Program-made: the position numbers and the translations under genes
Notes under the pieces: generated by a model
Databases searched by the model: none
Told to the model about the DNA's origin: nothing
The model's input: the letters and a program-made list of their open reading frames with translations, nothing else
Part shown: positions 16,101 to 17,841 of the stretch, piece after piece
How the letters are laid out: each line of letters begins with the position of its first letter
Position numbering within the stretch: position 1 is the stretch's first letter
Assembly: GCF_001457615.1 (NCBI RefSeq)
Contig: NZ_LN831024.1
Location: 2,790,001-2,822,000 of the forward strand
Source of the DNA: Pseudomonas aeruginosa
GTDB lineage: Bacteria > Pseudomonadota > Gammaproteobacteria > Pseudomonadales > Pseudomonadaceae
DNA length: 32,000 bases
Direction of reading: 5' to 3'

Positions 16101-17709
16101 TCGCAAGGCGCTACCGGCGCCTGAAGTAAGCGTGGCGCAGGCAGGCTACAGCGCACCGCGCAACGCAGTGGAGCGAACCCTGGCGGAAATCTGGCAGGAC
16201 CTGCTGGGCGTCGAGCGGGTCGGCCTGGACGACAACTTCTTCAGCCTCGGCGGCGACTCGATCGTCTCGATCCAGGTAGTCAGCCGTGCGCGCCAGGCCG
16301 GATTGCAACTGAGCCCGCGCGACCTGTTCCAGCACCAGAACATCCGCAGCCTGGCCCTGGCGGCCAAGGCGGGTGCGGCGACGGCGGAACAGGGTCCGGC
16401 AAGCGGCGAGGTGGCGCTGGCGCCGGTACAGCGCTGGTTCTTCGAGCAGTCGATTCCCAACCGCCAGCACTGGAACCAGTCTCTCTTGTTGCAGGCGCGC
16501 CAGCCGCTCGACGGCGACCGGCTGGGGCGTGCCCTGGAACGCCTGCAGGCGCAGCACGATGCCCTGCGCCTGCGTTTCCGCGAAGAGCGCGGCGCCTGGC
16601 ACCAGGCCTACGCCGAGCAGGCCGGCGAGCCGCTGTGGCGCCGGCAGGCGGGGTCCGAGGAGGTGTTGCTGGCGCTTTGCGAAGAAGCCCAGCGCAGCCT
16701 CGACCTCGAACAGGGGCCGCTGCTGCGTGCGCTGCTGGTGGACATGGCCGACGGCAGCCAGCGCCTGCTGCTGGTCATCCACCACCTGGCGGTGGACGGG
16801 GTGTCCTGGCGCATCCTGCTGGAAGACCTGCAGCGTCTCTATGCCGACCTCGACGCCGATCTCGGGCCGCGTAGCAGTTCCTACCAGGCCTGGAGCCGGC
16901 ACCTGCACGAACAGGCCGGCGCGCGCCTGGACGAACTCGACTACTGGCAGGCGCAACTGCACGACGCTCCGCATGCGCTGCCATGCGAAAACCCGCACGG
17001 CGCCCTGGAAAACCGCCATGAGCGCAAGCTCGTCCTGACCCTGGACGCCGAGCGTACCCGGCAGTTGCTGCAGGAAGCCCCGGCGGCCTACCGGACCCAG
17101 GTCAACGACCTGCTGCTGACCGCCCTGGCCCGCGCGACCTGCCGCTGGAGCGGCGACGCCAGCGTGCTGGTGCAGCTCGAAGGGCACGGCCGCGAGGACC
17201 TCGGCGAGGCCATCGACCTGAGCCGCACGGTGGGCTGGTTCACCAGCCTGTTCCCGCTGCGCCTGACCCCGGCCGCGGACCTCGGCGAGTCGCTGAAGGC
17301 GATCAAGGAGCAACTGCGCGGCGTGCCGGACAAGGGTGTCGGCTACGGCCTGCTGCGCTACCTGGCTGGAGAGGAGGCTGCGACCCGCCTGGCCGCACTG
17401 CCGCAGCCGCGGATCACCTTCAATTACCTGGGCCGGTTCGACCGTCAGTTCGATGGAGCGGCGCTGCTGGTACCGGCCACGGAAAGCGCCGGCGCCGCCC
17501 AGGATCCGTGCGCCCCGCTGGCCAACTGGTTGAGCATCGAAGGCCAGGTCTACGGCGGCGAGCTGAGCCTGCACTGGAGCTTCAGCCGGGAAATGTTCGC
17601 CGAGGCGACCGTCCAGCGCCTGGTCGATGACTACGCGCGGGAGCTGCACGCGCTGATCGAGCATTGCTGCCAGGAGGGCAACGTCGGCGCCACGCCGTCG
17701 GACTTCCCC
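13120..17709 (+). other. PvdI module 1: leader + C(LCL) + A(Ser) + T + E (approximate bounds)
   Basis: - C domain about 13270-14571 ([12 protein letters not shown]; HHIVSDG at 13663-13683).
- A domain about 14644-16116 ([45 protein letters not shown]). The code read by eye against GrsA-PheA is DVWHVSLIDK, a Ser type.
- T domain serine at 16258-16260 (FFSLGGDSI).
- E domain about 16414-17691 ([24 protein letters not shown]). Confidence 0.8.
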
Positions 17710-17841
17710 TCGCGACGTTGCGCCAGGAGCAGTTGGATCGCCTGCCTCTGGCGCGGATCGAGGACATCTACCCGCTGTCGCCGATGCAGCACGGCATGCT
17801 GTTCCACTCGCTCTACGAGCAGGCTTCCGGCGATTACCTGA
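13120..17841 (+). CDS. pvdI: pvdI 5' fragment as literally encoded: module 1 (C-A-T-E, Ser) plus a 43-codon out-of-frame tail after the frameshift
   Basis: This is ORF 13102..17841 of the track. It stays NRPS-like up to ...GATPSDFP (17709), then reads [14 protein letters not shown]... to the TGA at 17839-17841. Confidence 0.85.

Follow-up and report, generated by a model that had tools for sequence, protein, structure and literature searches.

A single missing cytosine between modules 1 and 2 of a type-II pvdI gene in a Pseudomonas aeruginosa assembly, probably a homopolymer undercall

Pseudomonas aeruginosa is well known to lose the ability to make pyoverdine in the laboratory and during adaptation to a host. 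NRPSs can also be divided naturally between two polypeptides, as in GrsA/GrsB and TycA/TycB, whose subunits meet at an E|C boundary and carry COM docking domains. On the technical side, the deletion of one nucleotide from a G/C homopolymer in GC-rich DNA is the usual residual error of a PacBio RS II consensus. The closest described relatives of the locus presented here are the type-II pyoverdine loci of ATCC 27853 and ST235, which were reported in a 2026 paper to encode NRPSs of 4135 and 4991 aa. The first of these enzymes contains five condensation and three adenylation domains, and a hydrolase adjoins FpvAII (2026 paper).

The stretch of P. aeruginosa DNA that was analysed comprises 32,000 nucleotides and is referred to as the window. 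Pfam and NCBIfam scans of ten slices yielded the domain order C-A-T-E-C-A-T-E-C-A-T for the first of its two large NRPS genes, i.e. five Condensation-family and three AMP-binding domains, as described for type II. The start codon (ATG 13120) agrees with the annotated start in HPA0170. The gene up to the break, and its larger neighbour, are made up as follows:

13120..17709, plus strand: module 1 of the pvdI-like NRPS, frame A, residues 1-1530 (Pfam and NCBIfam)
13273-14556, plus strand: module-1 C domain (Pfam/NCBIfam)
14668-16095, plus strand: module-1 A domain (Pfam/NCBIfam)
16177-16356, plus strand: module-1 T domain (Pfam/NCBIfam)
16405-17709, plus strand: module-1 E domain (Pfam/NCBIfam)
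25536..32000, plus strand: start of the second type-II NRPS (pvdJ equivalent), which leaves the window and shows no indel against the relatives

In the relatives, the pvdJ equivalent has a length of 4989-4991 aa. Upstream of the NRPS genes, the gene tables of two draft genomes (L004 and L005) list a pvdH-like aminotransferase, MbtH, a thioesterase, and a divergent block extending from PepSY_TM to the ZnuA-like genes. In terms of PAO1 gene names, this block is the fpvG...fpvF region. In HPA0170, the second NRPS gene is followed by genes for an alpha/beta hydrolase and a TonB-dependent receptor as well as by pvdE- and pvdF-like genes, all beyond the end of the window; the genomic context is that of a type-II locus, with hydrolase and receptor visible in the relatives only. 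Domain order, repaired length, and genomic context thus all match a type-II locus, in line with the assignment to pvdI made in the original prediction. Since exactly the same arrangement is described in the 2026 paper, the identification of the gene as the type-II pvdI equivalent, the first of two large pyoverdine NRPS genes, is supported. In comparison with the type-II NRPS of ATCC 27853 and ST235 (4135-4136 aa, replacing the PvdI of PAO1), the window shows the same repaired length, the same domain counts, and a neighbour of approximately 4990 aa. It differs in that its own copy is broken by a deletion of one nucleotide, whereas every other copy examined is intact.

The window letters around position 17700 read ggacttcccctcgcgacg, with a run of four C at 17706-17709. 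Two open reading frames overlap at this site (13102..17841 and 17664..25529 in the ORF list). Frame A, read from ATG 13120, encodes an ordinary NRPS through ...TPSDFP and then continues out of frame to a stop codon, and frame B, open from 17664 to 25529, carries the true continuation from 17709 up to a stop at 25527-25529. The features around the break and the corresponding junction further downstream are:

17706..17709, plus strand: C4 homopolymer, site of the single missing base; relatives carry C5 or CCCTC
17710..17841, plus strand: out-of-frame tail of frame A, 43 nonsense codons (SRRCARSS...LPAIT) and TGA 17839-17841
17709..25529, plus strand: continuation in frame B, residues 1531-4136, with linker, C2 (from 17760), A2, T2, E2, C3, A3, and T3
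22236..22340, plus strand: intact paralogous E-C junction between modules 2 and 3; CCC, no C5 run

The original prediction had described frame A as NRPS-like as far as DFP and as nonsense from there to TGA 17839-17841, and frame B as the real continuation from 17709. The translations agree with both statements, and one detail has to be corrected: the frame-A Pro codon, placed there at 17706-17708, occupies 17707-17709, and 17706-17708 is the Pro codon of frame B. Insertion of one C into the run joins the two frames into one ORF of 4136 aa that is free of internal stops, the three-module product that had been foreseen, and the HPA0170 homologue has 4136 aa, too. The missing base falls between residues 1530 and 1531. 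The domain bounds from Pfam and NCBIfam place the break, as proposed earlier, in the E1-C2 linker between modules 1 and 2: the Condensation-family match of E1 extends to residue 1519 and that of TIGR01720 to residue 1530 (profile position 143 of 155), and C2 starts at residue 1548 according to Pfam. The intact paralogous junction that had been expected near 22233-22340 was located from 22236 onwards.

The junction was compared in 11 retrieved type-II alleles, the alignment proposed along with the original prediction. All 11 are in frame and none carries the four-C run; nine (HPA0170, L004, L005, L008, L009, L011, L012, L017, and L018) possess C5, and the remaining two (L007 and L015) show the synonymous CCCTC. 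Against HPA0170 (98% identity), the missing C is the sole indel from 13000 to 32000, i.e. in approximately 19 kb of NRPS sequence, and it is also the sole indel private to the window in comparison with L005, L007, L009, L012, and L015. One SNP and the missing C separate L005 from the window over 28,882 bp, and L004 departs from it at six SNPs and the missing C. Both are drafts that encode the exact repaired protein. The 2606 residues downstream of the break equal the intact allele. The idea of a decaying pseudogene was considered separately and discarded: the gene harbors a single indel, and the repaired protein matches intact alleles at each of its 4136 residues.

An exact protein look-up among approximately 15 billion proteins located the two broken products, one of 1573 aa (CKH42400.1) and one of 2581 aa starting at ATG 17784 (CKH42439.1), each on one contig of 6,316,979 bp only. 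The repaired protein of 4136 aa was recovered residue for residue on six contigs under four accessions, among them AKO86688.1; the longest of these contigs measures 6,317,050 bp. The four-C assembly is taken here to be GCA_001457615.1/LN831024, the PacBio-only NCTC3000 assembly of the type strain NCTC 10332, which would fit its ENA-style CKH accessions and the product name "peptide synthase". The published complete genome of the type strain DSM 50071T (CP012001; PacBio RS II, 843x) also has 6,317,050 bp, and this strain has been deposited as DSM 50071, NCTC 10332, ATCC 10145, and LMG 1242. The two chromosomes are thus 71 bp apart, the one with four C being the shorter. Independent and very deep sequencing of what is apparently the same type strain yielded an intact gene.

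These comparisons suggest that the missing C is probably a homopolymer undercall in a long-read assembly and that the gene is intact in the cells; the base appears to have been lost by the assembly rather than by the bacteria. One C of a C5 run would have been dropped from a consensus built on long reads only, yielding split ORFs of 1573 aa and approximately 2600 aa, while in the cells an unbroken pvdI would give rise to an ordinary three-module PvdI. A consensus error is favored because the four-C run occurs in one assembly only, because the exact repaired protein is encoded by the apparent type-strain genome and by near-clonal relatives, and because the gene displays no other sign of decay. 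A homopolymer sequencing or assembly error was the first alternative named in the original prediction, and it is the one that the same evidence now brings to the fore. The lesion is a deletion of one nucleotide in a G/C homopolymer, in DNA with a GC content of 68%. The pipeline described in the NCTC3000 paper is PacBio-only (HGAP3, Circlator, and Quiver), without mention of Illumina, and NCTC 10332 is listed there as a type strain, with three PacBio runs (ERR550479, ERR550483, and ERR550484) assembled into one complete contig. Known homopolymer indels of PacBio RS II assemblies (HGAP/Quiver) likewise consist of one-base G/C deletions that produce an apparently frameshifted gene in one unpolished assembly. 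The present case departs from them in that the intact comparison assembly, DSM 50071T, is also PacBio-only (at 843x) and in that the error is one we infer.

Some observations weigh against an error, and the main competing explanation draws on them. It supposes that the four-C run is real, a recent 1-bp deletion private to the culture-collection stock that was sequenced, which would then be a pyoverdine-negative or cheater-like subline. This is possible, though clearly the less likely reading. The same tentative standing is given to its consequence, a PvdI cut after module 1 (C-A-T-E plus a nonsense tail of 43 aa) with modules 2-3 largely untranslated. Real 1-bp deletions favor homopolymers just as sequencing errors do, and sublines of reference strains differ by a few real indels. 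The deposited sequence encodes exactly this truncation, and the window is otherwise clean: it contains no second private indel, and one of the 18 C/G runs of at least five nucleotides is affected in the 28.9 kb compared, so that the assembly is not visibly error-ridden here. A phenotype that would fit has been described, as ATCC 10145 failed to make pyoverdine on King's B agar, and two NRPSs belonged to the most abundant of the proteins that were detected in the comparison clinical isolate and not in ATCC 10145 (PMC4153424). This is the one relevant report found in the literature on the pyoverdine phenotype of the type strain, and it concerns a single plate assay on a different stock. Against a genuine deletion stand the intact protein encoded by the DSMZ type strain and by the near-clonal genomes, the confinement of the allele to one assembly from an unpolished long-read pipeline, and the absence of secondary decay. 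Because the DSM stock carries C5, the missing C could not account for any lineage-wide pyoverdine defect of the type strain.

In pyoverdine-negative mutants (cheaters, cystic fibrosis isolates, and laboratory lines), the peptide backbone would no longer be made once a pvd NRPS gene is frameshifted, and a genuine deletion would be comparable in this respect. Those mutants, however, are backed by phenotypes and recur in populations, whereas the four-C allele is a singleton known from sequence alone. The pyoverdine-null genotype deduced in the original prediction is hence not the leading reading, given an allele seen in one assembly and an intact protein in the apparent type-strain genome and its near-clones. 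As for the module-1-only product of 1573 aa, its length is borne out by the database entry, whereas the claim that only module 1 is made does not stand unless the four-C run exists in cells.

It is far less probable that the run is real and the gene nevertheless works, either by a -1 ribosomal slip on C-CCC or by a split at E1-C2 with a restart; taken jointly, these two routes are considered very improbable. For the slip, tRNA-Pro would re-pair from 17707-17709 to 17706-17708. For the split, modules 2-3 would be restarted at TTG 17733, ATG 17784, or ATG 17796, and the candidate restart signals are:

17725..17735, plus strand: AGGAG 17725-17729, 3 nt, then TTG 17733 (frame B); sole Shine-Dalgarno-like restart candidate, with poor spacing
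17784..17798, plus strand: frame-B ATGs 17784 and 17796 without an upstream Shine-Dalgarno; the submitter started CKH42439.1 (2581 aa) at 17784

A split would be eased by the position of the break inside an inter-domain linker, where both halves keep complete domains (E1 ends at 1530, C2 starts at 1548). It would also be eased by the AGGAG just 5' of the frame-B TTG 17733, by the location of the restart codons 43-106 nt before the frame-A stop, and by the fact that natural multi-subunit NRPSs are often divided at an E|C boundary. Yet the spacing between AGGAG and TTG amounts to merely 3 nt, both ATGs lack a Shine-Dalgarno motif, as the original prediction had recognized when it found no good RBS for a restart there, and the upstream product would bear the 43-aa nonsense tail instead of a docking helix. 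The boundary is of the same type as in GrsA/GrsB and TycA/TycB, where an E domain is followed by a C domain accepting a D-configured donor. In contrast to these systems, pvdI has neither a separate start equipped with an RBS nor a docking sequence, and the split is unseen in relatives; a split NRPS with docking domains was rejected on these grounds. For the slip, the site (C TTC CCC T) does not correspond to an X XXY YYZ slippery heptamer, and the fold of the RNA at 17700-17820 has no advantage over shuffled sequences (z = +0.35). None of the 11 type-II alleles carries the frameshift, so neither route shows conservation. A programmed -1 frameshift was rejected for the same reasons: one frame in 11 of 11 alleles, no slippery heptamer, and no stimulatory fold.

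Transcriptional slippage would require a far longer run than C4. A phase-variable homopolymer was rejected as well, as the tract comprises 4-5 nt compared with the usual length of at least 7-8 nt, and the relatives possess only C5 or CCCTC. Slightly less probable still, and close to negligible, is a genuine four-C run in a stock that still makes pyoverdine, be it from two polypeptides (restart at TTG 17733 or ATG 17784) or by low-level slip.

The practical weight of the finding depends on which explanation holds. Most likely the assembly is at fault and the gene is a well-known one; at most, the finding amounts to a private frameshift of an ordinary kind. If the four-C assembly is the reference of the type strain NCTC 10332, its annotation shows type-II pvdI as two "peptide synthase" genes or as a pseudogene, and such a split annotation can mislead gene-cluster mining, presence/absence calls of virulence genes, and pangenome counts. 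A genuine private frameshift would be relevant to users of the stock and biologically ordinary. A working split enzyme, if true, would offer a natural test of a pyoverdine NRPS cut at an E-C boundary without docking domains and would be of wider interest for NRPS engineering.

Several smaller observations concern other variation in and around the window. The module-1 A domain is 95% identical to one A domain of the downstream NRPS. The adenylation specificities expected of the type-II pvdI equivalent are Ser, formyl-hydroxyornithine, and Orn, and such an identity would be in keeping with the two Ser positions of the type-II peptide. Within the module-1 A domain region (14586-16356), the window and L005 differ from L004 and HPA0170 at four synonymous SNPs (15162, 15186, 15201, and 15276), and the bases at these positions equal those of the paralogous, 95%-identical A domain in the downstream NRPS (HPA0170, L003 23061-24831). 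Judged from the base pattern, the SNP cluster at 15162-15276 resembles the trace of a short gene conversion involving the two A domains.

The HPA0170 copy of the locus lies on NZ_CP137515.1 (pHPA0170-2, 91 kb; L001/L002/L003), which is filed as a circular, non-mobilizable plasmid. It carries the pyoverdine locus with pvdF, a pvdE-like exporter, a TonB-dependent receptor, the hydrolase, and both NRPS genes, and probably represents a piece of the chromosome that was wrongly labelled as a plasmid. Divergence from HPA0170 is strong at 11998-12997 of the window (compared with L003 333-1332), in the PepSY_TM gene (11591-12802, minus strand) and in the stretch between it and pvdI, where many small indels occur in pairs and A6 stands against A7 at 12997; the NRPS genes, in contrast, are 98% identical. 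Because L004 and L005 match the window there, this divergence represents natural allelic variation.

Small length polymorphisms among the strains occur close to the start of the window, at 232, 1671, and 2005. They consist of a repeat unit of 3 bp (GCC), a duplication of 6 bp (GACGAG), and, in L009, a single G. The GACGAG duplication and the single G of L009 are located in or near a trehalase gene, and the trehalase is called with 545-547 aa across genomes. At 9785, in the ZnuA-like gene (9186-10139, minus strand), a nonsynonymous difference places Pro119 in the window and Ser in L004; the Pro119 allele is extremely common and occurs in approximately 25,000 blocks of the collection.
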